DNA of 64,000 bases from Candidatus Omnitrophota bacterium (GCA_903944345.1 CAJARJ010000021.1:5528-69527); one strand, 5' to 3'. Counted from the first letter of the stretch, positions 8,417 to 43,259 are shown. Translations and numbers: made by a program. Notes: a model not told the origin generated them from the sequence alone.

Positions 8417-9246
8417 GAAAATCTGTTATGCCTGGCATTCCTCCGCAGGAGGCTGTTACTGTTTACGGGGGGTATGTGCGATATTATCATTCAACCGAAT
8501 CATGTCGTGATTTGGCAAGGCTGGCCGAGGAACGCAAGCTAAAACAGGTTCTGGCCTGTTGTGGCGGAGGTGATCAGGCATTGACTCTTTTGGCCGGACT
8601 GGATAAAAAAGGAATCTTTTGGGCATTTGATCTTCAACCGGCTCAGTTGTTTGTGCTTGCGGCCAAAGCGCTTTATCTGCTGGAACGTAAAAGCCCTCCA
8701 TTTTATCCGTCCTTTTCTGTGATACAAAAGATGTATCCTGGCCGTATTTCTGCCCAGCCCCCGGATCGACGGAGAGTTGATCGATTATACGATGCCCGGC
8801 TTAAATGTTTTAGGGATCCGTTCAAAATGTTTCAGAAAAGATTTCTTTATGAATGCGACGGAGGATTGTTTGAGGACGGGCAGAGAACCCCATTCTGGTC
8901 CCGGGATCGGGATTACTGTCAGTGTATTTGCCGGAATATTGTCCGGCTCAGGCTTCTACGGGGAGATTTGTTCTATCTTGATCATTTTTTTAAACCGGCA
9001 ACAGTTGATTTGATATATGTGTCGGATATTTCTTTGGTTGCCGCCCAGGATTTCTTGTTGCAACGGATATCAGCGACTGTAGCCTTGTTGAGGCGAGGGG
9101 GGTGCCTGGCAGCTAATGCGGATTCCGGGGAGAGGTTTCTGGGAAATGGGATTTCGGTAGCTGATATGCTGGAGAGAAATTCTTCCCGACTGGGGCTAAT
9201 GGCTGGCGGGGTCAGCGGGGCGCTCAAAGTTTTTGAGAAGGCCTGA
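8413..9246 (+). CDS. DUF3419 / BtaA-like class-I SAM-dependent protein (homolog of 3-amino-3-carboxypropyl transferases); paralog of 18373..19296
   Basis: Blocks VLACCGGGDQALTLL, AFDLQPAQLFVL and DLIYVSDI resemble the BtaA/DUF3419 motifs VLSI(S/T)SAGCNxLxLL, AVDLNPxQ and LSNIxDW. GGYVRYY is conserved with the paralog. Confidence 0.45.
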   Translation: MRKSVMPGIPPQEAVTVYGGYVRYYHSTESCRDLARLAEERKLKQVLACCGGGDQALTLLAGLDKKGIFWAFDLQPAQLFVLAAKALYLLERKSPPFYPSFSVIQKMYPGRISAQPPDRRRVDRLYDARLKCFRDPFKMFQKRFLYECDGGLFEDGQRTPFWSRDRDYCQCICRNIVRLRLLRGDLFYLDHFFKPATVDLIYVSDISLVAAQDFLLQRISATVALLRRGGCLAANADSGERFLGNGISVADMLERNSSRLGLMAGGVSGALKVFEKA

Positions 9247-10660
9247 GCATGTGTCAGAGAAGGGCGCGTTAATGCGAGTAAGAAGAAAAAAGTTCGCTAT
9301 TCTGCAACTTATTCCCAAGCATCAGAACATGCTGCCGAATCAGTTGGTCAGAGCACTGTCTTTACTCAAATATCATCAGGTCGAATATGCTGTTTATGAT
9401 CTGGAGGCTTCGCTGGAGGCCGAGGCGGGGCAGGCGGTCGCTTCTCTTTTTGCAAAGATCAGGGAAGACGAGGTTGTTGTTTCCCTGGCTTGTCATTACA
9501 ATTATCCCAAATTGACCAGCCTAGTGCTTTTGTTTATGTACCAAGGCCTGTTGAAGGGCAAGCAGATTCATGTGTGTTCGCCGTATCTGTCTTTTTATCC
9601 GGTCAAACAGATTTGTTGCGAGAATATGTTTTTTCATTTTGTCGAGATCGATGAGTTTCTGGTTTCGTATTCAGGGTGGCCTTTTGTAGCTGAGGGCCTG
9701 TTGCTCAAGCCAATGGCTGAAGTTCTACGTGATCAGAATTACACGAATCGTGAATTCTGGACGCATCTGACCTGGGGGTGTCGTTCCTCCTGTTCTTTTT
9801 GTCATAATTGGGCGACAGCCAAGGGCAGAGAGCGGCTTGTCTATTCTGGGTACGATGAGGTGCTTTCCTTGATGCAGACGGCTCGTGCGCTTGGTGCGCG
9901 CAAATTTCAGTTTGCCGATCCTGACTTTCTGGGGGATGCTGCCTATGTTGGAGGGTTTCTTGAAAAGCTGACGGAGGCGGGTGGGTTCTTGCCCTGGCGA
10001 GCCAAGGCAAGGTTAGACAGGATCAATGAGTCAATGTATGAAAAAATGCTTGCTGCGGGGTGTGATCGTATATTCTTTGGTGTGGAGCATGTATCTTCTC
10101 GAATGTTAGACAGGGTCAATAAAGGTGAGAATACTCCGCGGCTGCTTTTGGACTTTATAAAATATTGGGGAACACGCGTGCAGCTCGATGTTTCTTTTCT
10201 CACAGGAATACGTGAAGAGACGGTGTCCGAGTTAAGAGAAAATATTCGTTATATATCCAGAATAGACAAGATTCGCGGGATAGAGGCTTATTTGGGGTAT
10301 GTGATTCTGTATTCCGGGTCTGCACGCAAAGTGGCTTTTAGCGATTATCTGGTGGCCTTTCTGCTGGTTTGCAATATGTTGCCCGAGGAATGGGAAATTG
10401 GGCAGGACTTTCTCAGAAGATTGTTGCAACTCTGTCAGCAAGAGCCCTTTTTTGGCTTTTTTATTCTTACCGAGAATGACCATAGTTTAGCGTTGTTCCA
10501 AGAACTGCTCCGGCAGAATAAGGCGGATATTGCGCCGGATTTTCTTTCAGATTTCGCCAGATTGTGGACATCGGTGGATGGGCGGCTCGCGAAGATTGTT
10601 GCGGGATCAAAGACGACAGGGGAGGTTAACCAAAAGATAGATCAATGGCTACTGAAGTAA
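9233..10660 (+). CDS. B12-binding-domain radical SAM protein (class B rSAM-like); paralog of 19289..20668
   Basis: WGCRSSCSFC cluster motif (CxxxCxFC) after a ~170-aa N-terminal domain consistent with a cobalamin-binding fold. FQFADPDFLGD block shared with the paralog (FKFRDPDFLGV). Confidence 0.65.
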   Translation: MRRPEHVSEKGALMRVRRKKFAILQLIPKHQNMLPNQLVRALSLLKYHQVEYAVYDLEASLEAEAGQAVASLFAKIREDEVVVSLACHYNYPKLTSLVLLFMYQGLLKGKQIHVCSPYLSFYPVKQICCENMFFHFVEIDEFLVSYSGWPFVAEGLLLKPMAEVLRDQNYTNREFWTHLTWGCRSSCSFCHNWATAKGRERLVYSGYDEVLSLMQTARALGARKFQFADPDFLGDAAYVGGFLEKLTEAGGFLPWRAKARLDRINESMYEKMLAAGCDRIFFGVEHVSSRMLDRVNKGENTPRLLLDFIKYWGTRVQLDVSFLTGIREETVSELRENIRYISRIDKIRGIEAYLGYVILYSGSARKVAFSDYLVAFLLVCNMLPEEWEIGQDFLRRLLQLCQQEPFFGFFILTENDHSLALFQELLRQNKADIAPDFLSDFARLWTSVDGRLAKIVAGSKTTGEVNQKIDQWLLK

Positions 10661-12237
10661 AACAAAACAATAAAAGTGGTTTTAGGGTTTCTACAGACGG
10701 CCTCTTTCTGCTGATGCAGCTTTGCGTTGCTTTGGGTGGCGGGCTGATCCTTGCCTGGGCATTAGCTGCCTGGGGAATCGGGATCAATAGTGATTCTGAG
10801 GCGTATCATGTTATGTCCCGGTGTTTGTCGGAGAAAGAGGGAGCTTTTAATGCTGTACCGGATTGTAAAACGCTGTCCCTGCATTTTCCTCCATTGTATC
10901 CGTTGCTAATTTCATTGATGCGTGGCTGGACCGAGAGTTTTATGGAGCGTTCGGCGGGATTGAATGTTTTTCTTTATTCGGGAAGCATTTTTGTTTCCGG
11001 AAGCTTGTTTAAAAGGCTTACCGGCTTGCCGTTTATGGGGCCCGCCGGAGCCCTGCTTGTTGCTGTTGCCCCGGTGGTTGTCAAGGCGCATACGGAAGCC
11101 ATGACTGAGGCCGTGTTTATATTCCTTACGTTGGCCGGCTTGTTCTTCTTTTTATGTTATTTGGAAAGAACCAGTTATTGGCGGTTGCTGGCAGCAGGGG
11201 TTCTCACCGGGTTATCGTTATTGTGCCGTTTTGCCGGACTGACTACCATTTTGGCGATGATGGTGACGATAGTTCTTTTTAAATCGCAACAAAGAAAGCC
11301 AGCGATTTTTGATTCTGTATTTTTTGTGCTGATAGCGTTGATGCCTATGGGGGGGTGGTGGATCAGGAATTTTTTTGATTACGGATTGTCGCTGGATCGG
11401 ATTGTTGTTTTTCATCCGCCAGGATGGTCTGGGTGGAGTGAGGCGTCCGGGGTTTTTTGTATGTGGCTCATGAGTCCGGTTTTCTGTTCTTTTATAAAAG
11501 AGATTGTTTTGTTGCTGGGATTCGTTGTTTTTTTTCTATTCTGCTGGCGGATTGGTAAGGCGCTGGCACTCAGGAACACAAAAGATACGGAAATTTTTCT
11601 TTTTTGGTCTTTTATGGCGGTTATGGCGATCTTGTTTTACCTGATTGGACTGGTGTTGACGATTTCCTGGCTGGACGGGTATATGACTTTGTCGCGAAGG
11701 TATTTGTTGCCGGTTTATGTTTTTGCAATGATCCTTTTTCCGGCATGGTTGCTCAGAAGAACGATCTGTTGCCAGGCGTCAGGCTCCTTGAGAGTGTTTC
11801 TGGGAAAGGTCTTACTTGTCTATTGGGTGTTTTTCAATTGTTCGGTTTCTGTTACCTGGTTGTGGCAGCAGCACTCACGCGGGAGTGGTTATGCGAGCCG
11901 TAACTGGCGGCAATCACCAACGATGCAGGAGCTCTGCCGACTGTCGCGTGAACATGTGATTTTCACCAACCTCAAGGCAGCAGCAGTAATTCATTCGGGT
12001 GCCCGCATATTTGAGATTCCGTGGTTGTCAGATCCGATGAACAGCCGCATGAATGCTCATTACCAGCAAGAACTAGAACAAATGGTGCGGCAGATAAAGG
12101 CGGGTAACGGCCTGCTGGTCTATTTCGATCAAGCTCCGAGTGACTTGCCGATTGAGTCTGCGCAGGTTCTGACGGAACGGTTGTCTTTGCGCATGGTGGC
12201 AAAGTTTGCTGACGGGGCGGTTTATTTGCCGGAATAA
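10645..12237 (+). CDS. GT-C-fold polytopic membrane glycosyltransferase-like protein (ArnT/PMT family-like)
   Basis: 530 aa with ~11-13 TM helices, an acidic first extracytoplasmic loop (INSDSEAYHV) and a ~110-aa hydrophilic C-terminal region, as in GT39/GT83 enzymes. It sits directly upstream of two Thr/Asn-rich secreted repeat proteins. Confidence 0.45.
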   Translation: MATEVKQNNKSGFRVSTDGLFLLMQLCVALGGGLILAWALAAWGIGINSDSEAYHVMSRCLSEKEGAFNAVPDCKTLSLHFPPLYPLLISLMRGWTESFMERSAGLNVFLYSGSIFVSGSLFKRLTGLPFMGPAGALLVAVAPVVVKAHTEAMTEAVFIFLTLAGLFFFLCYLERTSYWRLLAAGVLTGLSLLCRFAGLTTILAMMVTIVLFKSQQRKPAIFDSVFFVLIALMPMGGWWIRNFFDYGLSLDRIVVFHPPGWSGWSEASGVFCMWLMSPVFCSFIKEIVLLLGFVVFFLFCWRIGKALALRNTKDTEIFLFWSFMAVMAILFYLIGLVLTISWLDGYMTLSRRYLLPVYVFAMILFPAWLLRRTICCQASGSLRVFLGKVLLVYWVFFNCSVSVTWLWQQHSRGSGYASRNWRQSPTMQELCRLSREHVIFTNLKAAAVIHSGARIFEIPWLSDPMNSRMNAHYQQELEQMVRQIKAGNGLLVYFDQAPSDLPIESAQVLTERLSLRMVAKFADGAVYLPE

Positions 12238-12408
12238 AACCCGGCTAACTGGAGCATGAGAGGAATAGATATTCGTTATTGTCTGAAATGGTTATATTTA
12301 TAGCATTTCTTGCCTGGGAGCCAGCAAATGTATAGTATTCTTTCAGGAAAGGAGAATGGAAAGCCTTTTCTGTTTTGTCTCTGAGCAGCCAACATTGAGT
12401 GGTCTTGC

Positions 12409-12437
12409 TTGACAGCCTTTCTTGTTGAGTGTTAAAC
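12409..12437 (+). promoter_or_regulatory. Candidate sigma70-like promoter for the repeat-protein genes
   Basis: TTGACA (12409-12414), 17-nt spacer, TTAAAC (12432-12437); the Shine-Dalgarno AAGAGGGG sits ~5 nt upstream of the ATG at 12457. Confidence 0.3.
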
Positions 12438-12456
12438 TTAATCAGAAAGAGGGGTT

Positions 12457-13005
12457 ATGCTCAAACTATTGATTTCCATTGTTTTGTATTTTTTCTCGTG
12501 CGCAGCGGCTTGGTCGGAGGAAATTATTCTGACCACCTTTTATCCGCCCCCTAGCGGGCAGTTTTTGAATCTGACTGTGTTGGGCACTTTGGGTGTAGTG
12601 AACATCAATATTACGGGAACACTGACTATCGCCACTTTAAATGTCACGGGGAATGCTTCAGTTGGTGGAACTTTGAATGCTCGCAATACAACGCTTGGCG
12701 CAACGCTGAACGTGACCGGGGCCACAACTCTTGCCAGCACCCTGAGTGCCGGAGCCACCTCGATTAATGGGACATTGAACGTGAGTGGGCTAACAACGCT
12801 GGGTGCTCTGAGTGCTGCAGCCACCACGGTTAACGGGACTTTGAATGTGACCGGGGCCACCGTAATTACTGGCGCGTTAAATGCTCGGGCGACGACAGTT
12901 AACGGGACTCTGAATGTGAGCGGGGCCATGACCAGTGGTGGGATGTCCGCAGGAGGTTTTACGACAGCGGGGACAACCCAATGCGGTTCTTTGAATCTGT
13001 ATTGA
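12457..13005 (+). CDS. Secreted Thr/Asn/Gly-rich tandem-repeat protein (predicted beta-solenoid and/or glycoprotein)
   Basis: Signal peptide MLKLLISIVLYFFSCAAAWS, then conserved TTFYPPPSGQF, then repeats of the type (A/T)TT(I/V)NGTLNVTG(A/V)TTL. Most Asn lie in N-x-T sequons. Confidence 0.6.
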   Translation: MLKLLISIVLYFFSCAAAWSEEIILTTFYPPPSGQFLNLTVLGTLGVVNINITGTLTIATLNVTGNASVGGTLNARNTTLGATLNVTGATTLASTLSAGATSINGTLNVSGLTTLGALSAAATTVNGTLNVTGATVITGALNARATTVNGTLNVSGAMTSGGMSAGGFTTAGTTQCGSLNLY

Positions 13006-13089
13006 AGGTTGATCTTTTGGGATCTTCTTTTCGGAAACGCCTTGCGTGTGTTTTATGCAAATGTTAAGCTTTGTATTAGAAAGGGTCGC

Positions 13090-13644
13090 ATGGCAAAAAT
13101 CTGGGGTTTACTGCTTTTTATAGTTCTCTCCGCTAGCAGAGCCTGGTCGGATAACCTGGTTTTGACTACATTTTATCCGGCTCCAAACGGGCAGTATTTC
13201 AATATGAATGTAACGGGCACTCTGTCGGCCAATAATCTGACAGTTACCGGAACATTGACCGCTGCCACATTGAATGTGACCGGAAACATGACCGTTGGTG
13301 GTGCATTGAGTGTTACCGGGGCCACAACAATCAACGGGACGTTAAACGTAACGGGGGTCACAACGCTGAATGTTTTGAATGCCCGTAATACAACAATTAA
13401 TGGGACGTTAAACGTAACGGGGGTCACAACCCTTAGCACTCTGATTGCGGCCGCCACAACAATCAACGGGACGCTGAACGTGACCGGGGCCGCAACGCTT
13501 GCCAGCACTCTAAGTGCCGGTGCGACAACGGTGAACGGTGGGCTGGGTGTTACCGGAAATTCGACAGTAGGCGGCACGGTAACTGCCACCGGGTTTACAA
13601 CAGGGGGAACCCTGACGACCAATCGGCTGATTATTTGTCCCTGA
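13090..13644 (+). CDS. Secreted Thr/Asn/Gly-rich tandem-repeat protein, paralog of 12457..13005
   Basis: Start moved to the internal ATG at 13090, which has an AAGGG RBS (track ORF starts at 13009). Signal peptide MAKIWGLLLFIVLSASRAWS; conserved TTFYPAPNGQY; ~22-aa repeats VTGxTTLxxLxAxxTTINGTLN; 13 of ~21 Asn in N-x-T. Confidence 0.6.
   Translation: MAKIWGLLLFIVLSASRAWSDNLVLTTFYPAPNGQYFNMNVTGTLSANNLTVTGTLTAATLNVTGNMTVGGALSVTGATTINGTLNVTGVTTLNVLNARNTTINGTLNVTGVTTLSTLIAAATTINGTLNVTGAATLASTLSAGATTVNGGLGVTGNSTVGGTVTATGFTTGGTLTTNRLIICP
13230..13560. repeat. Intragenic near-identical tandem DNA repeats (~33 and ~66 nt units) encoding the NGTLNVTG repeats
   Basis: The units GGGACGTTAAACGTAACGGGGGTCACAAC and AACGGGACG(C/T)T(A/G)AACGT(A/G)AC(C/G)GGGG recur within 13.3-13.5 kb. 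A similar set lies at 12.6-12.93 kb in the upstream paralog. Confidence 0.55.
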
Positions 13645-13653
13645 TTCCATCAA

Positions 13654-14091
13654 ATGCGGGAGAACTTCATGAAGAAATTATTGCAAACGGCGGGCTGGGT
13701 CAGGCTGCCGGTTCAAACAGCTGTTTATCCTGTGCAGACAATTTATTCTGCCGGGTATGTTTTTCTAGATCGGGCCTATTTCTATCTGGAACCGGATGGC
13801 AAGAATGCTGTGTCCGTATGGATGAGTCCAAAAAAGAAAACAGATGATCTGGAATTGCTGGCCAAGGAGTTTTATCAGGAATTGCTTAATTACGCGCACT
13901 ATTTTATCAGCCTTAAGTCTAATGGAGATCACGTCAGGCTTTTGTTGCAGAGAGCGCTTTTTTCTGCCGCGCCTTCATTGGTCAAGGAGGCTGAAGAGCG
14001 CGAAATTCAGCAACTGATCAAGGAACTGGAGCAGGAGGATTTGTCGGCTTCGAAGAAGAAACAGAGCAAGAAGCCACCCGCTTCGACTTAG
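13654..14091 (+). CDS. Hypothetical protein (possible HxsD-like accessory protein of the maturase cassette)
   Basis: 145 aa, with a hydrophilic, Lys/Glu-rich C-terminus. It is first in the co-directional run 13654 > 14122 > 15092 > 16485 > 16933 with short gaps or overlaps. The functional call rests on position only. Confidence 0.35.
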   Translation: MRENFMKKLLQTAGWVRLPVQTAVYPVQTIYSAGYVFLDRAYFYLEPDGKNAVSVWMSPKKKTDDLELLAKEFYQELLNYAHYFISLKSNGDHVRLLLQRALFSAAPSLVKEAEEREIQQLIKELEQEDLSASKKKQSKKPPAST

Positions 14092-14121
14092 AATTGTACT
14101 TGTAGCAAGCGGGAACGGGAG

Positions 14122-15111
14122 TTGATTATGAGCGTTGCGATTGCCCCGGAGATGCAGAATCTTTTTAGCAGGCCGGCAGAAAAATTTGCCAAAAGAGTGG
14201 TTGTTTTTACAGGATTCAATTGTTCCAATAAATGCTGTTTTTGTGCGGTTGAGTCTAAGCGTCCGGCCGTAGATAAGACGACCGAAGAAGTTCTGCGGGA
14301 GATGGCGCGTGCTTACGAGCGGGGCGCCCGGCAACTGGTGCTTTCCGGAGGGGAATGCACTTTAAGAAAAGATATTGTTGATTTGGTGCGGGCCGCCCGT
14401 CAAAAAGGCTTTGTGGATGTGCATATTCAGAGCAATGGTCGAAGGTTTTCTGATATCGGGTTTTGCAAGGAAATGTTTGCGGCAGGCATGAGTTATCTAG
14501 GGACATCGATTCATGGCCCTAGCGGCGCGGTGCATGATGATTTGACCGCAAGGCCGGGCAGTCTGCGTGAAGTTGTTGAAGGCATTCATAATCTTAAAAG
14601 GCTTGCCCGGGGACGTATTGGCATTGCGATTAACTCGGTCATGGTCCGGCAGAATTTTGCTTTATTACCAGAGACAGCCAGTCTTTTAGTCAGATTACGG
14701 CCGGATTTGCTGCAGTTCGCGTTTGTGCATGCTTGCGGCTTTACAGAAGAGCGTTTCAGAAGATTTGTTCCCAGAAAGACGGACGTTGTTGCCTATGTCA
14801 AGCAGGGAGTAGATATAGCTGTTGGCGCAGGGATTCCGGTTATGGTGGAGGCAATTCCTTACTGTCTTTTGACCGGCTATGAGAAGCATTGTTCGGATCG
14901 GTTTATTCCCTCTACGGATGTGATTGAGCCGGGACGGGAAATTTTGAATTACGAGCAGGTTCGGCTTCGCAGCAGCAAACGCAAGTTTGCCCGTTGCCTG
15001 GACTGTCGTTTTGATGCGATTTGTGAAGGGCCGTGGCAGCAGTATCCTGAGCATTATGGAGATGAGGAATTCCAACCGGTAGAGGCAGAGTATGTCAACC
15101 AGAGAGCTTGA
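14122..15111 (+). CDS. Radical SAM protein (HxsC-like candidate)
   Basis: FNCSNKCCFC cluster motif; SGGECTL SAM-binding block; C-terminal Cys pairs (CLDCRFDAIC). Overlaps the next gene by 20 nt. Confidence 0.75.
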   Translation: MIMSVAIAPEMQNLFSRPAEKFAKRVVVFTGFNCSNKCCFCAVESKRPAVDKTTEEVLREMARAYERGARQLVLSGGECTLRKDIVDLVRAARQKGFVDVHIQSNGRRFSDIGFCKEMFAAGMSYLGTSIHGPSGAVHDDLTARPGSLREVVEGIHNLKRLARGRIGIAINSVMVRQNFALLPETASLLVRLRPDLLQFAFVHACGFTEERFRRFVPRKTDVVAYVKQGVDIAVGAGIPVMVEAIPYCLLTGYEKHCSDRFIPSTDVIEPGREILNYEQVRLRSSKRKFARCLDCRFDAICEGPWQQYPEHYGDEEFQPVEAEYVNQRA

Positions 15112-16501
15112 GTTTTTTGTTGTTCCCTACAACTCGAAGAAAATAGGCCAGCGGCATCTTGTGTCCAACAAGCTAGGCGGGTGGGCTTTTCTTGATCACA
15201 AGGACTTTGCGACGCTTTCTTCTCTGGATTGTCAGCCCGGCACGGAGCTTTTTGAGCGTTTGCGAAACGCCGGGGTGGTGGCGGATGTATCTAATATCGG
15301 GTCTTTGTTGAGCGGTTACCGCAAAATGAACCAGAATCTTTTTTCAGATACCAGTCTGCACATTGCAGTCGTGACGACTCGTTGCAATTTGGCCTGTCAA
15401 TATTGTCAGGCTCGGCCAGAGTCGGGCGAGGATATGTCCCCTGAGGTTGCCTCACGTGTCCTGAAATATCTTTTTGATGTCCGCAATCCTTCGGTCATGC
15501 TGGAATTTCAGGGCGGGGAGCCGCTAATGAATTGGCCGGTTGTTTCTCTTTTAACGGAGCATGCGCGCAAATTCAATACGTCCGGCAAGCAGTTGCAGAT
15601 TGCCATGGTCAGCAATTTCTTATTGTTGACCGAGGAGCAGATCAAGTTTCTTGTCGAGCACGAGGTTAATCTTTGTACGTCTCTGGATGGGCCGGAAGAT
15701 TTACATGATCAGAACCGGAAGGATTGGGCTGGCAAGGGGACTTACAAGGAATTAATGCGCAAAGTGGATCTTGTGCGCAAGAAATTCAACTGGCCGGTGC
15801 ACATGCTTCCGACGATTACCAGAGCTTCGCTCAAACACGCGCGCCGGATTATCGATGAGTATGTGCGTCAGGGGCAGCTGGAAATCTGCCTGCGTCCAGT
15901 GAATGATATGGGGGCGGCGCGTTGTTCCTGGAAGAGTCTGGGATATACGCCGGAAGAGTTTCTTGCTTTCTATCGGGAAGCCTGCGAATATATTTTTGAG
16001 TTGAATCGCAAGGGGATTGCCGTTCGGGAGCGAATGGCCAGAGTTCTTATGACCAAGGCTCTTTTTAAAGAAGATCCGCGCTATGTAGATGTGATGAATC
16101 CCTGTGGGGCCGGCAGAGTGGTTATGACGTATATGCCGGATGGTGGCTGCTTTCCTTGTGACGAAGCCCGGATGGTAGGCGGGGATCTTTTTAAACTGGG
16201 GAATATTTTAAAGGACGACTATAAAGATGTTATTTGTAGTGAGAACCTTTTGAATCTTTTGCAGTCTTCCTGTTCGGATCTTTGGCAAAGCGCTTCAGTT
16301 TACAGCCCTTGGACGGGATATTGTCCGGTCGTTAATTACGCGACTCAGCAGAATGTGATTGCAAAGTCAGCCTGTTCCCAGGCCCAGAGAATTTTGGAGG
16401 GGCAGTTTGATTATCTTTTCGAGAAACTGGAACAGGGTGGGGAAAACGAAATGTTTTTAAGGGAATGGGCGAAAGGAATGGCGCATGAAGAAAAAAAATA
16501 A
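15092..16501 (+). CDS. Radical SAM / SPASM-domain peptide-maturase-like protein (HxsB-like candidate)
   Basis: TTRCNLACQYCQ preceded by a ~90-aa N-terminal extension that may bind the precursor; GGEPLMN block. C-terminal auxiliary-cluster Cys pattern CGAGRVV...DGGCFPCDE...WTGYCPV...CS, typical of SPASM enzymes (anSME- and sactisynthase-like). Overlaps the start of the first precursor. Confidence 0.8.
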   Translation: MSTRELEFFVVPYNSKKIGQRHLVSNKLGGWAFLDHKDFATLSSLDCQPGTELFERLRNAGVVADVSNIGSLLSGYRKMNQNLFSDTSLHIAVVTTRCNLACQYCQARPESGEDMSPEVASRVLKYLFDVRNPSVMLEFQGGEPLMNWPVVSLLTEHARKFNTSGKQLQIAMVSNFLLLTEEQIKFLVEHEVNLCTSLDGPEDLHDQNRKDWAGKGTYKELMRKVDLVRKKFNWPVHMLPTITRASLKHARRIIDEYVRQGQLEICLRPVNDMGAARCSWKSLGYTPEEFLAFYREACEYIFELNRKGIAVRERMARVLMTKALFKEDPRYVDVMNPCGAGRVVMTYMPDGGCFPCDEARMVGGDLFKLGNILKDDYKDVICSENLLNLLQSSCSDLWQSASVYSPWTGYCPVVNYATQQNVIAKSACSQAQRILEGQFDYLFEKLEQGGENEMFLREWAKGMAHEEKK

Positions 16502-16916
16502 TCAGCAGCAAGCGCGCCCGAGAATTCCGCGTTCTCTGAGGCTATTTATCCGGGATGAAGAGGGGTTTGTCAGCAAAGAAACTATTTTGAATGTCGGATT
16601 GACGGCGATAGGTGTGGTCGGGCTGTTGGGAATTTCTTCTGATGTGGTCAATGCCGCGCACTCCAGTCACGCTTCACATTCCAGTTCCGGTGGCGAACAT
16701 GGCAGCACGACAATACCGGGGACAAGCTATGCCATGACCGCGCATATTAATGATGTTGTCTATCCCGCTACACCGGCCGGAGGATCCTGCATGGAGCTAA
16801 GTCCACCGACGCATTCCAATGTTGCGGCAACGCATTGCAACCGGGCGGCTGTGCATGGAAGCTCCATATCAACGCATACGAATGTTACGCCGCATGCAAA
16901 TCATGACTCGTATTAG
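16485..16916 (+). CDS. His-rich precursor-like protein A1 (His-Xaa-Ser/Asn triplets; HxsA-like)
   Basis: 143 aa. Basic N-region MKKKNNQQQARPRIPRSLRLFIRDEEGFVSKET, hydrophobic segment ILNVGLTAIGVVGLLGI, a VNA|AHS site, then a core AHSSHASHSSSGGEHG...GGSCMEL...THCN...HANHDSY with 11 His in 88 aa and 2 Cys. Confidence 0.65.
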   Translation: MKKKNNQQQARPRIPRSLRLFIRDEEGFVSKETILNVGLTAIGVVGLLGISSDVVNAAHSSHASHSSSGGEHGSTTIPGTSYAMTAHINDVVYPATPAGGSCMELSPPTHSNVAATHCNRAAVHGSSISTHTNVTPHANHDSY

Positions 16917-16932
16917 CAAAGCGAGAGGATAT

Positions 16933-17355
16933 ATGAAAATAGACAAGACCAAAAGCAGGATTTTCAAGGCCCCGCGGACGCTAAAAGGATTTCTTGACGG
17001 AGAAGATGGCTATGTCAGCAAGGAAGCTATTTTGAATGTCGGATTGGCCACGATTGGCGTTTTGGGGGTGATGGGATCTTTTTCCGACCCGGCTTATGCC
17101 GCGCACAGCAATCATGGTTCGCATAGCAATGGAGCCGGGACTTTTCATGCCAATGCCTCGGCAGGGCATGTCAATACGGCTGTGGCGCATAGTAATCTGC
17201 AGCATTATGATGATTTCCCATCCGGTGGGTGCCGCGAGTTGCTGCCGGATCACAACAATATTGCTGCGGCGCATTGCAATGTTGGGGCCACGCATTCCAA
17301 CATTCCGGGCACACATGGCAACACCAGCGGGCACGCCAATCATTCCTCGTATTGA
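16933..17355 (+). CDS. His-rich precursor-like protein A2, paralog of A1
   Basis: Start placed at the ATG at 16933, which has a GAGAGGA RBS (track ORF 16819 is a spurious 5' extension overlapping A1). N-region and hydrophobic segment ILNVGLATIGVLGVMG are near-identical to A1; AYA|AHS site; core AHSNHGSHSNGAG...GGCREL...AHCN...HANHSSY with 13 His in 87 aa and 2 Cys. Confidence 0.65.
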   Translation: MKIDKTKSRIFKAPRTLKGFLDGEDGYVSKEAILNVGLATIGVLGVMGSFSDPAYAAHSNHGSHSNGAGTFHANASAGHVNTAVAHSNLQHYDDFPSGGCRELLPDHNNIAAAHCNVGATHSNIPGTHGNTSGHANHSSY

Positions 17356-17426
17356 CAAGGCGAGAGAGATTGGAGTTTTGGTCAATAAACAGGCGTATTT
17401 TTTGACCATCAGCCAAAGGTTCTCGG

Positions 17427-18398
17427 ATGGATTTTCCATATCTTGATTCTGCTGATACCCCTCAGATTGCGGCATTATGGCTCAGGAACAATTATGCGCC
17501 CGCCGTTCCTCGAACCCAATTGATCGAGCATATTCGCTGGAAATATGATTCCCGACGAGCTGTGATTTACAGCCAAAGGGAAGAGGGCCGGATTTTTGCC
17601 ACAACAGGCTACTTAAAGGGATCTTTCTGCAATGGAAACAGCATTTTTAGTATTGGTTGGGGCATGGACTCTCTGATTGATGAGCCGTTAAGAGATGGTC
17701 GTGTGTTTGCCTTTATGCGTGTATTGCGCTCTACCATGCGTTCTGCCGAGCACGAAATTCTGGTTGCTTTTGCCAACAAGAACGTTCACGACACCTATTT
17801 ACGGATTGGTTTCCAGCCTTGGAATGGTTTTTTCTTTTATCAGGCAAAGCTGCAAGCCGGGATGGTGCTGCCAGTTCGACCCGACAGGGGGTTTGATCTT
17901 TTATGGAAAGATGAGCTGGATGTGTCGGGGGCTGAAGCTCTGTTCAGGCGAACGCAGGGGTTTTATCAGGGGATCAGTCCGAGAGACAAGGAATATCTGG
18001 ACTGGCGTTATGGTCAATGTCCTTTTCGTCGGCATGTGTTTCTGCATGTTTATCGGCAAAGGGTTTTGGTTGGATATTGTGCGGTACGCTTTGTTTTGCA
18101 ACCGGAATCGCGGACAGGCTATATTGTGGATCTTCTGGATTCTCCCGACGATGATGCCGTGCTGGAGGTTATGTTGCTGGAGCTTATGGCACGTTGCCGG
18201 CAGCGAGAAATTGCGCAGATCGAAACTGTTTTGACGAATGGGCGGATTTCACAGGGACTGTTGCGTTGTGGATTTTTTCGGCAGCAGCAGGAAACTGTGT
18301 TGGTGTGGCTGAAGAGTGACCGGGCACGCAGGTTTTTTGAACAGGGTTCGACAGGCATGCATTTGACGATGAGTGACGGCGATTATGATATGGAATAA
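17427..18398 (+). CDS. Hypothetical protein, possibly a GNAT-fold / FemAB-like acyltransferase
   Basis: 323 aa. The C-terminal half has a GNAT-like topology (VGYCAVRF...GYIVDLL...LELMARCRQREIAQIE); I recognised no diagnostic motif. Confidence 0.3.
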   Translation: MDFPYLDSADTPQIAALWLRNNYAPAVPRTQLIEHIRWKYDSRRAVIYSQREEGRIFATTGYLKGSFCNGNSIFSIGWGMDSLIDEPLRDGRVFAFMRVLRSTMRSAEHEILVAFANKNVHDTYLRIGFQPWNGFFFYQAKLQAGMVLPVRPDRGFDLLWKDELDVSGAEALFRRTQGFYQGISPRDKEYLDWRYGQCPFRRHVFLHVYRQRVLVGYCAVRFVLQPESRTGYIVDLLDSPDDDAVLEVMLLELMARCRQREIAQIETVLTNGRISQGLLRCGFFRQQQETVLVWLKSDRARRFFEQGSTGMHLTMSDGDYDME

Positions 18399-19296
18399 GT
18401 TAGGTAGTGGGCAAGGTTCGCAATGGCCCCGGAAGGAGAAGAGTATGGTTGGCGTTCACCGCAAGCCGCTGGATATAGAAGAAATGATGACAACGTGCGG
18501 CGGGTTTGTACGCTATTTTGGCACCAATGAACCGGTGTCGCATATTGCCAGTGTCCTGGAGAAAACAGTATTCCGTCGGGTTTTGGCTTGCTGTGGAGGA
18601 GGGGATCAGGCTTTGACATTGCTCGGGCTGGCGGGGCGCCCTTCAGAAATTTATGCGTTTGACATGAATCTGGCGCAGCTGTTTGTTCTGGCCTGCAAGG
18701 CCCAGCTCTTCAAGGATAAGAAAATGAAGACGTATGCTCCTTCTTTCGATCGGATCAGCCGGTTGAACATGGGAAGAATTCGCGCCCTTCCTAATGATGT
18801 TCGGCCCGTGGATACGCTGCTGACTATTCCAGGAGAAAGAAAGATTGCGCTGGAACATGTTTTTGCCGGCCGGTTTGGCTACGAGGTCGACACCGGGATG
18901 CACGATTTTCTCAAGAAGAATATTTACTGGGCAGATGATGCGCGTTTTATTTCCAGGATTCGTTCCGGATTGCCGGCGCTTAAAGGAATTCATTGTGATT
19001 TGCTTTCCTTGTCGGACTGGTTTGCGCCGGATTATCTCGATGTGATATATGTGTCGGATATCCCTTTGCACAATGCTATTCCTTATTATCTGGAAAGACT
19101 GCGTTGCCTGGTGGATTGTCTGGCGCCGGGTGGATTGTTTATTGGCAATCTGGAGGATCAGGCGGTTCTGGATCGCTGCCCGTCGGTGATTGAGGTGATG
19201 CGCAGTTATAAGGATTTGTTCGGGTTAGTGGAGTTCAGGAAAACAGGACAAATTCTGGCTTTACGCAAGGTGCGGCCTGTCAGAAGTATTGGATAA
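18373..19296 (+). CDS. DUF3419 / BtaA-like class-I SAM-dependent protein (paralog of 8413..9246)
   Basis: GGFVRYF, VLACCGGGDQALTLLGLAG, AFDMNLAQLFVL and LDVIYVSDIP blocks. Confidence 0.45.
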   Translation: MTAIMIWNKLGSGQGSQWPRKEKSMVGVHRKPLDIEEMMTTCGGFVRYFGTNEPVSHIASVLEKTVFRRVLACCGGGDQALTLLGLAGRPSEIYAFDMNLAQLFVLACKAQLFKDKKMKTYAPSFDRISRLNMGRIRALPNDVRPVDTLLTIPGERKIALEHVFAGRFGYEVDTGMHDFLKKNIYWADDARFISRIRSGLPALKGIHCDLLSLSDWFAPDYLDVIYVSDIPLHNAIPYYLERLRCLVDCLAPGGLFIGNLEDQAVLDRCPSVIEVMRSYKDLFGLVEFRKTGQILALRKVRPVRSIG

Positions 19297-20668
19297 AAGA
19301 ACGATGCCCCGAGAAATTGCTGTCATTTTTTTTGCGCAGGATGACCGTGTTGTGCCGGTGGATTTGGTTGAGGCCATTGCCTGGTTGGAACAGTCGGGAA
19401 TCAGGCACAAGCTTTACATGCCGGCACGCGGGAAAAGAGGCAGCTGGCGGCAAGCTGTTGCTGAAACTTTGAGCGGAGTCCAGGCGGATGAAGTGTTTGT
19501 ATGTTTTTTGAATGAAAATCATTATCTGGCAACAGCGTCTTTACTTCAGCTGGTCTTTTGTGCAGAGTTTCTCGGGGATAGAGATATTCATGTCTGCCTG
19601 CCGGCTTTAAGTTTGTTTAGGGGGCGGCCTGCGTTGCGGGGGCGTTTTGTCTGGCACGCAAAGAAACTGACGCAGGTTCTTGGTGAACGGCTGGACGGGT
19701 TGAAAAAAGAGCGGTTATTCTCACCGGAAGTCCTTGCCGATGTCACGGTTCGTCTCGGATACAGAAGACAGATCCTTTCGGCTCTCTGGTCGCCGGGGTG
19801 CGGGCACAGCTGTTCGTTTTGTTTTTCCCGTGACAACGGAGAAATGATTGAGCCTGATGCCGGCATTCGTCAGGAAAAACTAGTTTTTCTGCTTGAGCTG
19901 GCGCGTTTAACCGAAGCAAGTTGTTTTAAATTTCGTGATCCTGACTTTCTGGGAGTTCCCGCTAACGCCTGGGAGGCGTTGCGGATTCTTGGTTCTGTCG
20001 CTCCGGGTACAGCGTTTAGATGTAACGCACGACTGGAAGACCTCAATAGAGAGGCACTTGTGCGTCTTGCGGACGCCGGATGCTCCCAGGTATTTTCCGG
20101 TGTGGAGCATGTTTCGATGCGCCTGGTGGAGGCGACAGGAAAACAGGAGAAAGTTCTCGGTCTATTAGCGGGCGTGTTGGCCCATAAACCCCGCAAGATG
20201 GATCTTGCCTTGTCTTTTCTGGCCGGCCTTCCGGGAGAGACCTTGCCGGAGGCGAAGGATAATTTGTGTTTGATCAGGAAGTTAATGAAGTTGAAGGGGG
20301 TTAAACCATATCTTGGGTATTATGTTTTGTTTGCCCAAGAGGTCCGGTCAGGGGCTTTTTTCGATCCCTTGCTGGCTTGCCTGAATTTTTCGGCGATTGT
20401 TCCCGAGGGCATGTTTCTGGATTATCAGGATTATTGTGGCCTGCTAAAGACAGTTAGAGAAGATGCTTTTTTCAGTTTTTTTGCTGCTGCCCTTAATCGA
20501 AACAGCGCTGAGGTTATTCGAATGTTGCTGCGCGAATTTAGCGCGGACGCATGCTTGTCTGAGTGCATGCCGATGGCTAGAAAACTGCTTCTGTTGCGCC
20601 CGGAGCTGGCCAATAGAATAATGAGTGAGCTTGGTGCGCCAACGTTTTTGTGCAGGGGGGCTGTGTGA
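19289..20668 (+). CDS. B12-binding-domain radical SAM protein (paralog of 9233..10660)
   Basis: PGCGHSCSFC cluster motif after a ~165-aa N-terminal domain; FKFRDPDFLG and FSGVEHVSMRL blocks shared with the paralog. Confidence 0.65.
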   Translation: MDKRTMPREIAVIFFAQDDRVVPVDLVEAIAWLEQSGIRHKLYMPARGKRGSWRQAVAETLSGVQADEVFVCFLNENHYLATASLLQLVFCAEFLGDRDIHVCLPALSLFRGRPALRGRFVWHAKKLTQVLGERLDGLKKERLFSPEVLADVTVRLGYRRQILSALWSPGCGHSCSFCFSRDNGEMIEPDAGIRQEKLVFLLELARLTEASCFKFRDPDFLGVPANAWEALRILGSVAPGTAFRCNARLEDLNREALVRLADAGCSQVFSGVEHVSMRLVEATGKQEKVLGLLAGVLAHKPRKMDLALSFLAGLPGETLPEAKDNLCLIRKLMKLKGVKPYLGYYVLFAQEVRSGAFFDPLLACLNFSAIVPEGMFLDYQDYCGLLKTVREDAFFSFFAAALNRNSAEVIRMLLREFSADACLSECMPMARKLLLLRPELANRIMSELGAPTFLCRGAV

Positions 20669-22155
20669 TCAGATTGGCTGTTGACAAAAAAGTTTCATTG
20701 TCCTCTCTGTGCCCGAAACAGGATTTTTTCGAGGTTCTCAATGGAGCCGGTATCGCGGCTTTTGATGAGCGCGGTTTTTTTAATCGTGTTTATGCGCGGG
20801 AGGCCCTGGAGCTTTATCAGCGGCACGAATTGGGGGCTCTCAGGCAGATAGCCAGCCGGGGGGCAGTGCTTGTTTGTGATGAGGTTCGACAGAGACTGTT
20901 TCTTGTGGCAGACAGCGCCGGGCATTCGACTTTTTATTATCTGTTGCGGCAGGGAGAGCTGATTTTTTCCAGTCGGCTTCAGGAACTGGATGAGTATTTT
21001 CGTTTTGACTTGAGTGAACGCTCTACCGATGAATATCTGGCCTGTGGTTTCATAAGTTCTCCGTTGACCGTTTTTGATGGTGTAGGAAAACTTCCTCCCG
21101 GAGGATATTTATTGCTTGAAAATGGCCGGGTTCAGGTTTCTGTTTGTCGAAAGACAAAGATTCCTGCCAGCGATAAAGTATCGGATAACTATCAACGAGA
21201 GCTTGAGGCTGCTTTTGAGAGTTGCCTGGCTCGAACGGCGGATGCTCCGTCCGGGTTGATGCTCAGCGGTGGTTACGATTCTTCTCTTTTAGGGGAGCTT
21301 CTATTGCGCCGTTACGGTCGGCTGCGGACCTGGGTCGTTGATATGATGGGGTATAATGCGGCAACTGTCCGTCAAGCCCAGGAAATGTCGCGCATTCTGG
21401 GGACAGACCATTCTTGTATTCCGGTGAGTGCCCGTGATTATATGGGATATTTCAGAAAGGCGCTCGGATTGGTTGAGGAACCGCTGCTTGACCTGGATTT
21501 TCCGGTTATTCGTCAGGCGGTGCTGGCGATAGGGAACAAGGCCCAATATGTTTGGCATGGATTTGGCAGTGACGAGGTTTTGGGAGAAAGGGTTATTGAT
21601 TTCAAGGGGGCGCTTACTCTTTTTGCCGCACAAAAAGGGAGGTCATCCTGGAAAGGGAAGATATCTGTGCGTCAGATCGGGCAGGCTTTTCTTGCCACCA
21701 AAGTTCCCCAGGAATTGCGGGCGCATTATCGTTTATGCGAAGCAAGCGGAACTTGCCTGGTTTTTCCGTTTTTTGAACCGGAACTGATTAGTGTGGCAGC
21801 CCGGATGCCAATTAATCTGATGAAAAATAAACGGCTTCTACGAGGGATGTCTTCCCGTCTTCATCAGCTTCTGCCTGTGCAGCCAAGAGAGGAGCGGGGG
21901 CAGATGCCGGCGCTGATCAAGCATGTGCTGATTGAAGGGCACAAGGAGTCCTTGCTGGCGGACAGTTTTCTGGCAGTTTTTATAAAGAAGAACGGCGCTT
22001 CTGCAATTTTTGAGCGCAAGAGTGAAGATTTGCTTTTACGGATGATAGTTTTTCTTGTCTGGAAGCAGGAAAGAGATCGTCGCTTGTCGCTGGTTTTTTT
22101 TGACCCGCGGAGTTCGGGGGCCAGCAGGGGAGAAATAAGTGTTGCCCGCGATTGA
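20650..22155 (+). CDS. Asparagine synthetase (AsnB)-like amidotransferase homolog, full length
   Basis: 501 aa; PP-loop LMLSGGYDSSLLGELL at ~residue 205; HGFGSDEVLGE block. The N-terminus MQGGC is not a canonical Cys-2 Ntn glutaminase start, so it may be a non-glutaminase family member as in lasso-peptide-cyclase-type AsnB homologs. Confidence 0.6.
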   Translation: MQGGCVIRLAVDKKVSLSSLCPKQDFFEVLNGAGIAAFDERGFFNRVYAREALELYQRHELGALRQIASRGAVLVCDEVRQRLFLVADSAGHSTFYYLLRQGELIFSSRLQELDEYFRFDLSERSTDEYLACGFISSPLTVFDGVGKLPPGGYLLLENGRVQVSVCRKTKIPASDKVSDNYQRELEAAFESCLARTADAPSGLMLSGGYDSSLLGELLLRRYGRLRTWVVDMMGYNAATVRQAQEMSRILGTDHSCIPVSARDYMGYFRKALGLVEEPLLDLDFPVIRQAVLAIGNKAQYVWHGFGSDEVLGERVIDFKGALTLFAAQKGRSSWKGKISVRQIGQAFLATKVPQELRAHYRLCEASGTCLVFPFFEPELISVAARMPINLMKNKRLLRGMSSRLHQLLPVQPREERGQMPALIKHVLIEGHKESLLADSFLAVFIKKNGASAIFERKSEDLLLRMIVFLVWKQERDRRLSLVFFDPRSSGASRGEISVARD

Positions 22156-23152
22156 TCATGTCTGGATATTCATTACCGGCCGGTGTAATGTGCGTTGTGA
22201 GCATTGTTTTTTTGCACACAAATCGGAGCGCCTGCGTTTGTCAAGTCGTTCGCAGGACGCTCTGTTTCGCTTTCTGTCTGCTGCCGGCAAGAAACAATTC
22301 ATTATCTCGGGAGGTGAGCCGTTTATGGTATGGCCGGCCACACGCGCGCTGCTACTGCGGATCAGGCAGGCGTATCCGCAGGCGTATTTGTCTGTCCAGT
22401 CTAACGGGTTAATGATGAAGCCGGGACATTTGGTTACGCTTAAATCAATGCGGGCGAATCTGGAGCTTGGCATAGATGGTGATGAGGCGGCGGTGGCCGC
22501 CAGTCGGCGGGGGTTGCCGAGGGGCGGCTTTCAGAGGTTATGCGCATCTTTGTCAGCTGCGCGGACGGCAGGGGTTGGTCTGAGCACAACCATGACAGTC
22601 ACTCCGCAAAATGTGGCGAATTTATCGGATAATTTTATGGCGTTGCTTGGCTTGCGCGCGCGCGCGATTGAGATTCATCCGGCTTTTATGGCGCAGTGGC
22701 GGCGGGCAGAAAGCAGGCTTTTTTTGCAGGGATACCGTCGCGCCCTTGCCAGCGAACTACGAATGGGAGAGCGGGGACTGATTAGCAGGGAATACAGCCT
22801 GCCAGCCAAAGGGGTTTGGGATATGGTTATTCTTCCTGACGGGAAGGTGCTTGCGAACTGGACCTTTTTGTCATTCCCGGAGCATGTGCGTGAACAATTT
22901 GTGGTGATGGATTTATCAAAGAGGGATGGAGAATTCTTGCCGGCGGCGAAGAGCTATTTTTCCGCCTTGCGCAAGTTTCTCGGGCAAGGTTCTGCTCCGG
23001 TTTCGTATCGCCGTTTAAGTAATTTTAATGCCTCTCTGGCCATTTCTGCCTGGGGGAATCCGCAGTCCGGACGATGTTTTAAGGAGTATGTCCGCTTGTG
23101 CGATGAGATTGAGCAGATTGATCTTGCAACCATAAGGAGACGGCCCGCATGA
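22139..23152 (+). CDS. Radical SAM protein (paralog of 5995..6996)
   Basis: ITGRCNVRCEHC cluster motif; SGGEPFM and LSVQSNGL blocks. Confidence 0.8.
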   Translation: MLPAIDHVWIFITGRCNVRCEHCFFAHKSERLRLSSRSQDALFRFLSAAGKKQFIISGGEPFMVWPATRALLLRIRQAYPQAYLSVQSNGLMMKPGHLVTLKSMRANLELGIDGDEAAVAASRRGLPRGGFQRLCASLSAARTAGVGLSTTMTVTPQNVANLSDNFMALLGLRARAIEIHPAFMAQWRRAESRLFLQGYRRALASELRMGERGLISREYSLPAKGVWDMVILPDGKVLANWTFLSFPEHVREQFVVMDLSKRDGEFLPAAKSYFSALRKFLGQGSAPVSYRRLSNFNASLAISAWGNPQSGRCFKEYVRLCDEIEQIDLATIRRRPA

Positions 23153-43257: not shown

Positions 43258-43259
43258 TT

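Follow-up and report, generated by a model that had tools for sequence, protein, structure and literature searches.

Two paralogous genes of Candidatus Omnitrophota most likely encode unannotated substrates of a divergent His-Xaa-Ser radical SAM system

Organization of the cassette

A stretch of 64,000 nucleotides from a Candidatus Omnitrophota bacterium (GCA_903944345.1, CAJARJ010000021.1:5528-69527), referred to here as the window, was analyzed computationally with a focus on two adjacent genes, designated A1 and A2, and on the three genes that precede them. The gene order in this cassette is HxsD, HxsC-like, HxsB, A1 and A2 (Table 1). Because HxsD, an HxsC-like radical S-adenosylmethionine (radical SAM) enzyme and HxsB lie directly before A1 and A2, the locus was assigned to the His-Xaa-Ser (Hxs) system, and A1 and A2 are most likely the unannotated substrate (HxsA-type) proteins of a divergent Omnitrophota version of this radical SAM maturation system.

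The in silico definition of the Hxs system is attributed to Haft and Basu (2011), who are cited in PMC13128918 and PMC9062424. In E. coli, HXS is a broad antiphage system (Li et al., Nat Commun 2026, PMC13128918), in which a non-canonical N-terminal cleavage of HxsA and a +8 Da modification within its HxS repeat both require HxsB, HxsC and HxsD, and the mature HxsA, located in the periplasm, counteracts the entry of phage DNA. The survey in that study placed 99.7% of the HXS systems in Pseudomonadota and found the order D-B-C-A in 99.6% of them (PMC13128918).

Comparison with NCBIfam profiles gave HxsB a score of 368.9 bits against TIGR03978 (HxsB, cut-off 370), with the next family at 127 bits, 241 bits lower, and the exact sequence is already public as 'His-Xaa-Ser system radical SAM maturase HxsB'. 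The nearest families of the HxsC-like enzyme were HxsC4 (NF038332, 131.4 bits, cut-off 500) and HxsC (TIGR03977, 95.5 bits, cut-off 267.9), both matched far under their cut-offs, with other radical SAM families at about 60 bits and Pfam Radical_SAM at 80 bits. The small protein encoded upstream matched TIGR03976 (HxsD) with 35.2 bits (E 1.2e-8, cut-off 50); the JGI name for the exact protein is 'His-Xaa-Ser system protein HxsD', and Pfam PF27806 (HxsD) is recorded for the same gene in four metagenome contigs (L001-L004). The sole NCBIfam match of both A1 (39.9 bits, residues 12-70) and A2 (33.2 bits) was HxsA3 (NF038309, cut-off 65), in an alignment limited to the N-region and the first repeats, and TIGR03979 (HxsA) was unmatched by either protein in the same scan. 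No Pfam family was matched in A1, A2 or 90 of their relatives, and exact-sequence look-up returned 'hypothetical protein' for both. PADLOC (2023), which has no Hxs models, returned only generic viperin-like radical SAM similarity.

Thus the type of system is already known and two of the proteins of this locus, HxsB and HxsD, are publicly named, while the substrates are unannotated. A preliminary description of this DNA had taken A1 and A2 for precursors of a family of ribosomally synthesized and post-translationally modified peptides (RiPPs). Their position beside upstream radical SAM maturases, with a conserved N-terminal and a variable C-terminal part, agrees with that description; the system is nevertheless a catalogued one, the Hxs system, and not an unrecognised family.

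Table 1. Features of the window, with positions counted from its first nucleotide
Feature	Position	Strand	Basis or remark
HxsD-like small protein, 145 aa (public calls: start 13669, 140 aa)	13654..14091	+	TIGR03976 match; public HxsD name
HxsC-like radical SAM enzyme, 329 aa	14122..15111	+	HxsC4/HxsC best NCBIfam matches; Pfam Radical_SAM
HxsB radical SAM/SPASM maturase, 469 aa, with a predicted N-terminal domain like a RiPP recognition element (RRE)	15092..16501	+	TIGR03978; public name; AlphaFold2 (AF2); Foldseek
A1, HxsA-type precursor, 143 aa	16485..16916	+	HxsA3 NF038309 match; BLASTP vs A2
A1 leader, aa 1-27: Lys/Arg-rich start, then F21-I-R-D-E-E-G27	16485..16565	+	invariant G27; Flp-register alignment
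A1 aa 28-57: FVSKE (Glu at +5), hydrophobic helix, V-N-A↓A end	16566..16655	+	Kyte-Doolittle; AF2; hhalign
A1 tail, aa 58-143: H-x-(S/N) repeats, Cys102, Cys118, terminal HANHDSY	16656..16913	+	repeat count; homologue alignment
A2, second HxsA-type precursor, 140 aa	16933..17355	+	HxsA3 NF038309 match; 91% identical orthologue P0007
A2 leader, aa 1-26	to 17010	+
A2 helix segment, aa 27-56	17011..17100	+
A2 tail, aa 57-140		+
Predicted secreted protein, 182 aa, first of two adjacent genes directly upstream of HxsD	12457..13005
Predicted secreted protein, ~184-211 aa, second of the two	13009..13644
323-aa protein directly downstream of A2	17427..18398		no Pfam, NCBIfam or PDB sequence match
Nine radical SAM genes	starts 5926, 9233, 14122, 15092, 19289, 22139, 24258, 25373, 26289
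Three AsnB-like amidotransferases	6941, 7703, 20650	- (6941)
PMT_2 glycosyltransferase	10645
DUF3419-like protein	18373
DegT aminotransferase	23149
GT28-family glycosyltransferase	27382..28728	-	Pfam Glyco_tran_28_C E 6.4e-9; tblastn with GT28 of related loci 30-31% identity, E to 8e-52

Two paralogous genes for probable substrates

The preliminary description had reported two paralogous precursors, here found as two adjacent open reading frames (ORFs) on the + strand, and BLASTP supported the paralogy, with 47% identity between A1 and A2 over 131 aa at an E value (8e-36) far beyond chance. Identity was distributed unevenly, at 15% for residues 1-13, 57% (26/46) for residues 14-59, 29% for residues 60-97 and 42% for residues 98-143. 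The N-region, which had been called near-identical, is therefore the best-kept segment, but only 57% of it is identical, and conservation does not extend to the first 13 residues. Its motif had been given one position off register, the true sequences being F-I-R-D-E-E-G in A1 and F-L-D-G-E-D-G in A2. The downstream scaffold GG(S)C.EL...H.N(V/I)AA.HCN...HANH(D/S)SY is present in both proteins as described, whereas the distance between the two Cys residues, reported as about 17 residues, is 16 in A1 and 15 in A2.

Better conservation of the N-region than of the core, on which the preliminary description had depended, was found across 40 homologues: the mean majority-residue fraction was 0.78 over residues 14-52 of A1 but fell to 0.25 over residues 60-143, with the last 13 residues (0.62) as an exception. 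C102, H131, H140, S142 and Y143 of A1 are kept in homologues, and H131, H140, S142 and Y143 were invariant in a 10-sequence alignment. Close relatives have orthologues of both paralogues (88%, 79% and 91% identity).

The start of A1 and the stop region of the preceding radical SAM gene (469 aa) overlap by 17 nt, and such overlapping reading frames suggest translational coupling. The A2 start codon is preceded by GAGAGGA, and a start at 16933 (140 aa) fits both this ribosome-binding site and the family alignment. A 178-aa ORF beginning at 16819 (16819..17355) was considered as the real A2 and rejected, since it overlaps A1 and lacks a ribosome-binding site, and homologues begin at MK.... Some public gene calls (P0280) contain a 166-aa version of A2 with an N-terminal extension into A1.

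Repeats in the C-terminal tails

All 11 His residues in the A1 tail belong to H-x-S or H-x-N triplets (HSS, HAS, HSS, HGS, HIN, HSN, HCN, HGS, HTN, HAN and HDS), as do 12 of the 13 His residues in A2. In a set of 40 proteins of the family, 180 of the 194 His residues (93%) were found in H-x-[SN], 110 with Asn and 70 with Ser, compared with 47 +/- 5.7 in composition-preserving shuffles (maximum 68 in 2000). What had been described as a divergent His-rich core is indeed His-rich and variable, but is more exactly an H-x-(S/N) repeat, the hallmark of HxsA proteins. Asn takes the place of Ser in most triplets, and A1 keeps one HSS-HAS-HSS run. The AF2 model of A1 shows the tail as a low-confidence coil.

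The near-invariant Cys, together with HxsB relatives that form thioethers, suggests a cross-link in the Omnitrophota clade. Since bona fide HxsA3 proteins are Cys-free, the conserved target of modification must be the H-x-S unit.

In most members of the family, a conserved H-T-N-(V/I)-T-T-H element (A1 aa 131-137, 16875..16895) includes an N-x-T sequon. In view of this sequon and of the conserved GT28 neighbor described below, the tail might be glycosylated.

Related loci

A scan of one genome per species yielded 29 related loci, all of them from Candidatus Omnitrophota or 'uncultured Planctomycetales' metagenome-assembled genomes. By tBLASTn with the window proteins, 25 of the 29 loci had an HxsB homologue adjoining the precursor, and HxsD homologues (52-64% identity) were located upstream of HxsB in 25/29. 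Of the remaining four loci, some of which are truncated, L026 and L028 gave no HxsB match, L032 was matched by a single precursor query out of two, and L033 yielded its precursor by motif alone. The usual order is HxsD-HxsB-HxsA; an HxsC-like gene lies between HxsD and HxsB only in the window and in L005, and several kb away in a few other loci.

These loci usually encode one substrate of about 88 aa, which consists of a Lys-rich start, a near-invariant KSLxELMKDEDGFVSKETILKVGLSTVAALG segment, a variable linker and a C-terminus of the form H-T-N ... C ... H-T-N-(V/I)-T-T-H-(T/S)-S-Y. By sequence, A1 and A2 are an expanded form of this protein, with extra H-x-N heptads and a second Cys. The features that are invariant in the short tails, namely a pair of H-T-N triplets, a single Cys and the terminal H-x-S-Y, delimit a minimal substrate of about 25 residues, which could ease in vitro study of the radical SAM chemistry.

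In most related loci, HxsA is followed first by the gene for a secreted protein rich in Cys (about 255 aa), then by that for a GT28 glycosyltransferase and then by that for a convergently transcribed radical SAM enzyme of about 340 aa. Within this companion set, at about +0.3 to +5 kb from HxsA (L005-L033), the Cys-rich protein, which belongs to no known family, was found in 20 loci and GT28 in 22. In 13 of the 29 loci an A24 peptidase gene (cluster 5, Pfam PF01478, 28.9 bits) comes next, 3-5 kb downstream. Genes for PilB, PilB and PilC and a coiled-coil protein are located directly upstream of HxsD in seven related loci; the window has no such PilB-PilB-PilC genes. In these seven loci, the HxsA-like gene is the only ORF within 10 kb that resembles a class III signal.

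A profile search of 1.84 billion representatives recovered 190 clusters at E <= 1e-3. Distant clusters (P0105, P0119, P0148 and P0156) combine the same N-region with canonical HxSHxSHxS runs and score 88-111 bits against NF038309. Three such HxsA3 proteins could be placed with their contig context (L037, L047 and L048), and all three loci have a seven-gene layout of HxsD, an HxsD-like protein of 63-76 aa, a membrane protein of 333-454 aa, HxsC, HxsB, a MORN-type protein and HxsA3, which is not described in the 2026 HXS paper (PMC13128918). In L037, HxsC scored 293.8 bits and HxsB 481 bits. The membrane protein matched Pfam Peptidase_A24 in L037 and L048, and the versions from L037, L047 and L048 are mutually homologous (E 1e-16 to 1e-40), so that an A24 peptidase is a core gene in 3/3 HxsA3 loci with sufficient flanking sequence. 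The A24 peptidase of the Omnitrophota loci (about 300 aa) has a long membrane extension at its C-terminal end and is homologous to that of the HxsA3 systems over the catalytic N-terminal part (E 5e-9 to 1e-7). Neighbors of the HxsA3 systems include PycTM (L037) and Abi_C, SRA/McrA-like and HNH genes (L048).

The N-region resembles a Flp-type prepilin signal

In a 90-sequence alignment picked from the profile-search hits, G27 was the only invariant column, and F21, E25 and G38 were at least 90% conserved. Numbered from a cleavage point after this Gly, the family logo reads F(-7) [LMIV] K D(-4) E(-3) [DES] G(-1), followed by x [VI] [ST] [KR] E/D(+5) x [ILV] L K [VI] G and about 14 hydrophobic residues, with Glu or Asp at +5 in 68% of the members. 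Nine plasmid genes annotated as 'Flp family type IVb pilin' have the form F[LAV][KR][DN]E[SDQ]G↓ATAIEYGLI..., and the heptamer FLKDESG occurs literally in both sets. When a 175-sequence profile of the N-region was compared with the alignment of the nine Flp sequences by hhalign, the two matched over 35 columns (Prob 92.5%, P 4.9e-7) in a register that aligned the Gly residues with each other and likewise the Glu residues at +5. The reversed Flp alignment gave 2.3%, and 30 column-shuffled versions gave at most 3.3%.

The AF2 model of A1, built with the family alignment, comprises a short helix (residues 18-23), a loop at DEEG↓FVS and a long helix (residues 31-53, predicted local distance difference test (pLDDT) 85-89). 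The mean Kyte-Doolittle hydropathy was 2.21 for A1 residues 34-48 and 2.09 for A2 residues 33-47, and the segment before the hydrophobic stretch has a net charge of +8 in A1 and +5 in A2. The class III signal pattern is thus present, with a leader that ends in an invariant Gly, Glu at +5 and a hydrophobic helix, and without Tyr at +6. Overall, the conserved N-region looks like a Flp-type (class III) prepilin leader followed by a membrane helix rather than like an ordinary RiPP leader. The canonical type IVa prepilin motif (G-F-T-L-I-E) was not found in the window or in any locus by a strict search, and a looser rule, G-x4-E followed by hydrophobic residues, recovered the HxsA-like genes plus a few others, in L006, L007 and L031.

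The resemblance of the N-region of the whole A3-like branch to Flp prepilins, and its link to a dedicated A24 peptidase, are new; neither PMC13128918 nor the other literature searched mentions a Flp-signal/A24 link for this branch. The A24 peptidase is a concrete and testable candidate for the N-terminal processing step.

HxsB structure and the nature of the leader

The AF2 model of HxsB, built with 45 homologues (pLDDT 87.9, predicted template modelling score 0.88), shows an N-terminal domain (residues ~1-85) of b-b-b-b-a-a-b-a topology, whose elements span residues 8-79, followed by the radical SAM barrel and the SPASM region. The top Foldseek match in the PDB was the sactipeptide synthase CteB (5wgg/5why, E 1e-22), with 473 aligned columns; as the CteB chain has 440 residues, the alignment takes in the RRE of CteB. 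The next matches were anSME, ChlB, TigE and SuiB. CteB was also the best solved relative by sequence (phmmer E 3e-25, residues 94-429). HxsB thus models as a CteB-like enzyme with RRE-like, radical SAM and SPASM domains. An RRE in HxsB had no match at the sequence level; the structural evidence, that is, the winged-helix-like model and the CteB alignment, points to an RRE-type recognition domain in the N-terminal extension (residues 1-90), as the preliminary description had proposed.

Such a domain would also be expected if A1 and A2 belonged to a classical RiPP pathway, in which the N-region would be purely an RRE-bound recognition leader and a small modified His-rich peptide, for example a metallophore, would be freed or exported. 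The conserved N-region and variable C-region are compatible with such a pathway, as are the similarity of HxsB to CteB and other RiPP maturases, the short tails (~25-30 aa) of most Omnitrophota homologues and the near-invariant Cys, given that the nearest HxsB relatives (PapB, QhpD and SCIFF) make thioethers. However, the 'leader' contains a 23-residue hydrophobic helix after a strongly basic segment, which is a membrane-insertion pattern; the conserved neighborhood contains no C39 peptidase/ABC exporter or other RiPP protease, the recurrent protease being A24; and the characterized member of the family is a processed periplasmic protein (PMC13128918). We therefore regard a classical RiPP pathway as improbable. 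The N-region is conserved as a RiPP leader should be, but with its helix, its Flp-register motif and the A24 peptidases in related systems it is not merely a leader, and the product to be expected from this combination is not a small peptide free to diffuse but a protein that is processed and located in the membrane or periplasm, much like the E. coli HXS effector (PMC13128918).

The comparison with RRE-dependent radical SAM/SPASM RiPP pathways (CteB/thermocellin, SuiB, PapB and QhpD) leads to a similar division. Shared features are the predicted RRE-radical SAM-SPASM layout of HxsB, with CteB as the best match in both structure and sequence, and an adjacent substrate gene with a conserved N-part and a variable C-part. 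The Hxs cassette differs in the membrane helix of the substrate, in a target that is H-x-(S/N) and not Cys (bona fide HxsA3 proteins being Cys-free), in the accessory HxsD and second radical SAM enzyme, and in the absence of a RiPP-type leader protease or exporter.

Proposed processing pathway

We consider it probable, though well short of certain, that the substrates of this Hxs cassette are modified by radical SAM enzymes in the cytoplasm, cleaved after Gly by an A24 peptidase and left with a membrane-anchored His-rich tail in the periplasm. The order of events would be as follows. HxsB, through its putative RRE, and HxsD would hold the basic leader, with its acidic cap, and the segment behind it in the cytoplasm, where the H-x-(S/N) tail would be modified by HxsB with HxsD and, in this cassette, also by the HxsC-like enzyme. 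The hydrophobic helix would then insert into the inner membrane, leaving the N-terminus on the cytoplasmic side and the tail on the outer side, and a prepilin-type A24 aspartyl peptidase, presumably encoded elsewhere in the genome, would cut the leader at a predicted site after G27 (A1) or G26 (A2). In the resulting topology, a modified His-rich tail would be displayed in the periplasm on an inner-membrane anchor. The function may lie in the cell envelope, possibly in preventing the entry of phage DNA, by analogy with the E. coli HXS effector.

Several observations weigh against parts of this proposal. Every NCBIfam score of the cassette falls short of the curated cut-off. Pfam Flp_Fap (PF04964) was unmatched in all 90 family members, even at E <= 10, so that the link to Flp stands on the profile-profile comparison and on synteny. 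Positions +4 and +9 are occupied by Lys, and +6 by a residue other than the Tyr typical of Flp, which makes the mature N-terminus atypical for a pilin. An A24 peptidase gene was not found within the 64-kb window by tBLASTn. Behind the helix there is a good AxA-type site (V-N-A↓A in A1, A-Y-A↓A in A2), which in many members immediately adjoins the first His and at which signal peptidase I could take off the whole N-region instead. The neighboring genes are biosynthetic (nine radical SAM enzymes, three AsnB-like amidotransferases and glycosyltransferases), not defence genes.

The AxA-type site raises the alternative that the N-region is an extended Sec signal peptide of unusual length, with a conserved n-region that would be recognized by the maturase. 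In this case signal peptidase I would cut after A57 (A1) or A56 (A2) and free a soluble His-rich periplasmic protein, as has been proposed for E. coli HxsA. In keeping with such a signal are a basic n-region (net +8 in A1, +5 in A2), an h-region with a mean Kyte-Doolittle value of 2.1-2.2, and V-N-A↓A-H or A-Y-A↓A-H just before the first H-x-S; the n-region is, however, 33 aa long and includes an acidic motif. Bona fide HxsA3 proteins show AFA↓AH, AYA↓GH and ASA↓AH at the same place, and E. coli HxsA, which bears a signal peptide, is finally located in the periplasm (PMC13128918). This alternative does not account for the F..DE.G motif and the invariant Gly that the family has in common with Flp prepilins, nor for the dedicated A24 peptidase of the HxsA3 systems. 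Moreover, many Omnitrophota homologues have TDISSGQ instead of a clean AxA, and a permissive -3/-1 rule (satisfied by 134/169) is easily met by chance in sequences rich in Ala, Ser and Gly. Processing by signal peptidase I therefore appears rather unlikely, if somewhat less so than a classical RiPP pathway.

A further possibility follows the prepilin resemblance to its end: the Omnitrophota HxsA-like proteins could be genuine Flp-like pilins that are cut by A24, polymerized by PilB-PilB-PilC, cross-linked in their tails by radical SAM enzymes and perhaps glycosylated by GT28, and the window would then carry a two-pilin version with its island of nine radical SAM genes. We judge this unlikely; if true, these would be the first radical SAM-modified pilus subunits. 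In comparison with Flp/Fap type IVb prepilins and their TadV/CpaA (A24) peptidases, the substrates have a similar leader end (F-[hydrophobic]-[KR]-D-E-x-G), Glu at +5, a helix, a small size, an A24 gene in related loci and the hhalign match given above. They differ in having no Flp_Fap match, no Tyr at +6 and Lys at +4 and +9, in the absence of Tad genes from the window, and in a His-rich C-terminal repeat targeted by radical SAM enzymes, which is unknown in pilins. Anchoring of a processed, modified tail in the inner membrane remains the preferred interpretation.

Comparison with other Hxs systems and possible function

Like the E. coli HXS system, the cassette encodes two radical SAM enzymes, one HxsB-type and one HxsC-like, and a small HxsD together with a putative substrate that contains repeats resembling His-Xaa-Ser and an N-terminal export or anchor signal, and for which an N-terminal cleavage beyond simple signal-peptide removal is predicted. 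It differs in the gene order (D-C-B-A-A instead of D-B-C-A) and in having two substrates; in A1 and A2, a peptidoglycan-binding domain was undetected, H-x-N is as frequent as H-x-S, the tails show no basic enrichment and the N-terminus is Flp-prepilin-like. Further differences are the host phylum, Omnitrophota, and HxsC, which is far under its cut-off here and absent from the cassette in most Omnitrophota relatives.

The HxsA3 systems (NF038309) share with A1 and A2 an N-region composed of F..DE.G, x-(I/V)-x-(K/R), a hydrophobic helix and (A/G)H. They also have HxsC before HxsB, as in the window, and an A24 peptidase homologous to that of related Omnitrophota loci. A1 and A2 differ from them by scores of 33-40 bits against a cut-off of 65 and by a long HxSHxSHxS run that is cut to three triplets, with spaced H-x-N heptads, Cys and an H-x-S-Y end. 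The HxsD-like and MORN genes of the HxsA3 systems were not found in the window, which also lacks their A24 gene and has no defence island.

The Hxs system therefore reaches well beyond Pseudomonadota into Omnitrophota, where the cassette is usually D-B-A and its substrates have been overlooked by annotation. What is new for this phylum is a divergent cassette, usually without HxsC and with H-x-N triplets, and, in the window, the presence of two expanded substrates within an island rich in radical SAM genes. The candidate peptidase and the topology predicted here, an inner-membrane anchor with a periplasmic tail, bear on the cleavage and export of the Hxs effector, and the minimal substrate bears on the radical SAM chemistry.

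An antiphage role for this cassette would rest on analogy with E. coli HXS. Alternatively, whichever way they are processed, A1 and A2 may not be antiphage proteins at all and might be a metal-binding or surface-structure part of an envelope-modification pathway encoded by the surrounding island. This would be in keeping with the content of the ~21-kb island (nine radical SAM, three AsnB-like, DegT, PMT_2 and GT28 genes), with the absence of a compositional anomaly, with neighbors in the relatives that are PilB/PilC, the secreted Cys-rich protein and GT28 and not defence genes, and with tails dense in His, Asn and Ser/Thr. The sole experimental data on an Hxs system, however, indicate phage defence (PMC13128918), and the neighbors of bona fide HxsA3 loci include Abi_C, PycTM, McrA-like and HNH genes. 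We consider such an envelope-modification function a real possibility, although not the favored one.

Genomic surroundings

The cassette lies inside an island dense in radical SAM genes, from about 5926 to 28728 and mostly on the + strand, and the same island was found in metagenome contigs L001-L004. Compared with the common layout of the related loci, the window has about 10 kb of extra enzyme genes between the substrates and the GT28/radical SAM module, and the secreted Cys-rich protein of the related loci is missing from its island. From synteny we infer that the GT28 glycosyltransferase of the window may be part of the Hxs pathway. A scan of 12200..17600 for promoters and terminators gave counts equal to the shuffled expectation.

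The 323-aa protein encoded directly downstream of A2 has homologues (29-30% identity) in L030 and L033, where they lie some kb downstream of the cassette, often accompanied by a DUF3419-like protein and a 459-aa radical SAM enzyme.

The two predicted secreted proteins encoded upstream of HxsD matched no Pfam or NCBIfam family and had no homologue in the 29 related loci. They have in common an N-terminal TTFYP(A/P)P(N/S)GQ(F/Y) motif and many TLNVTG(A/V)TT repeats, each of which holds an N-V-T sequon, and their genes adjoin the PMT_2-type glycosyltransferase gene. A 66-bp tandem repeat of 2.8 copies is located at 13321..13500.

An origin of the island by horizontal transfer was considered and rejected, since the GC content (~0.50) and the GC skew are uniform across the window. 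The skew is positive in every 2-kb bin of positions 1..64000 (+0.09 to +0.26) and the GC content is flat. Nearly all long ORFs of the window, including the probable rpoB/rpoC genes (49395..57818), are on the + strand, which is an unusually marked strand bias.

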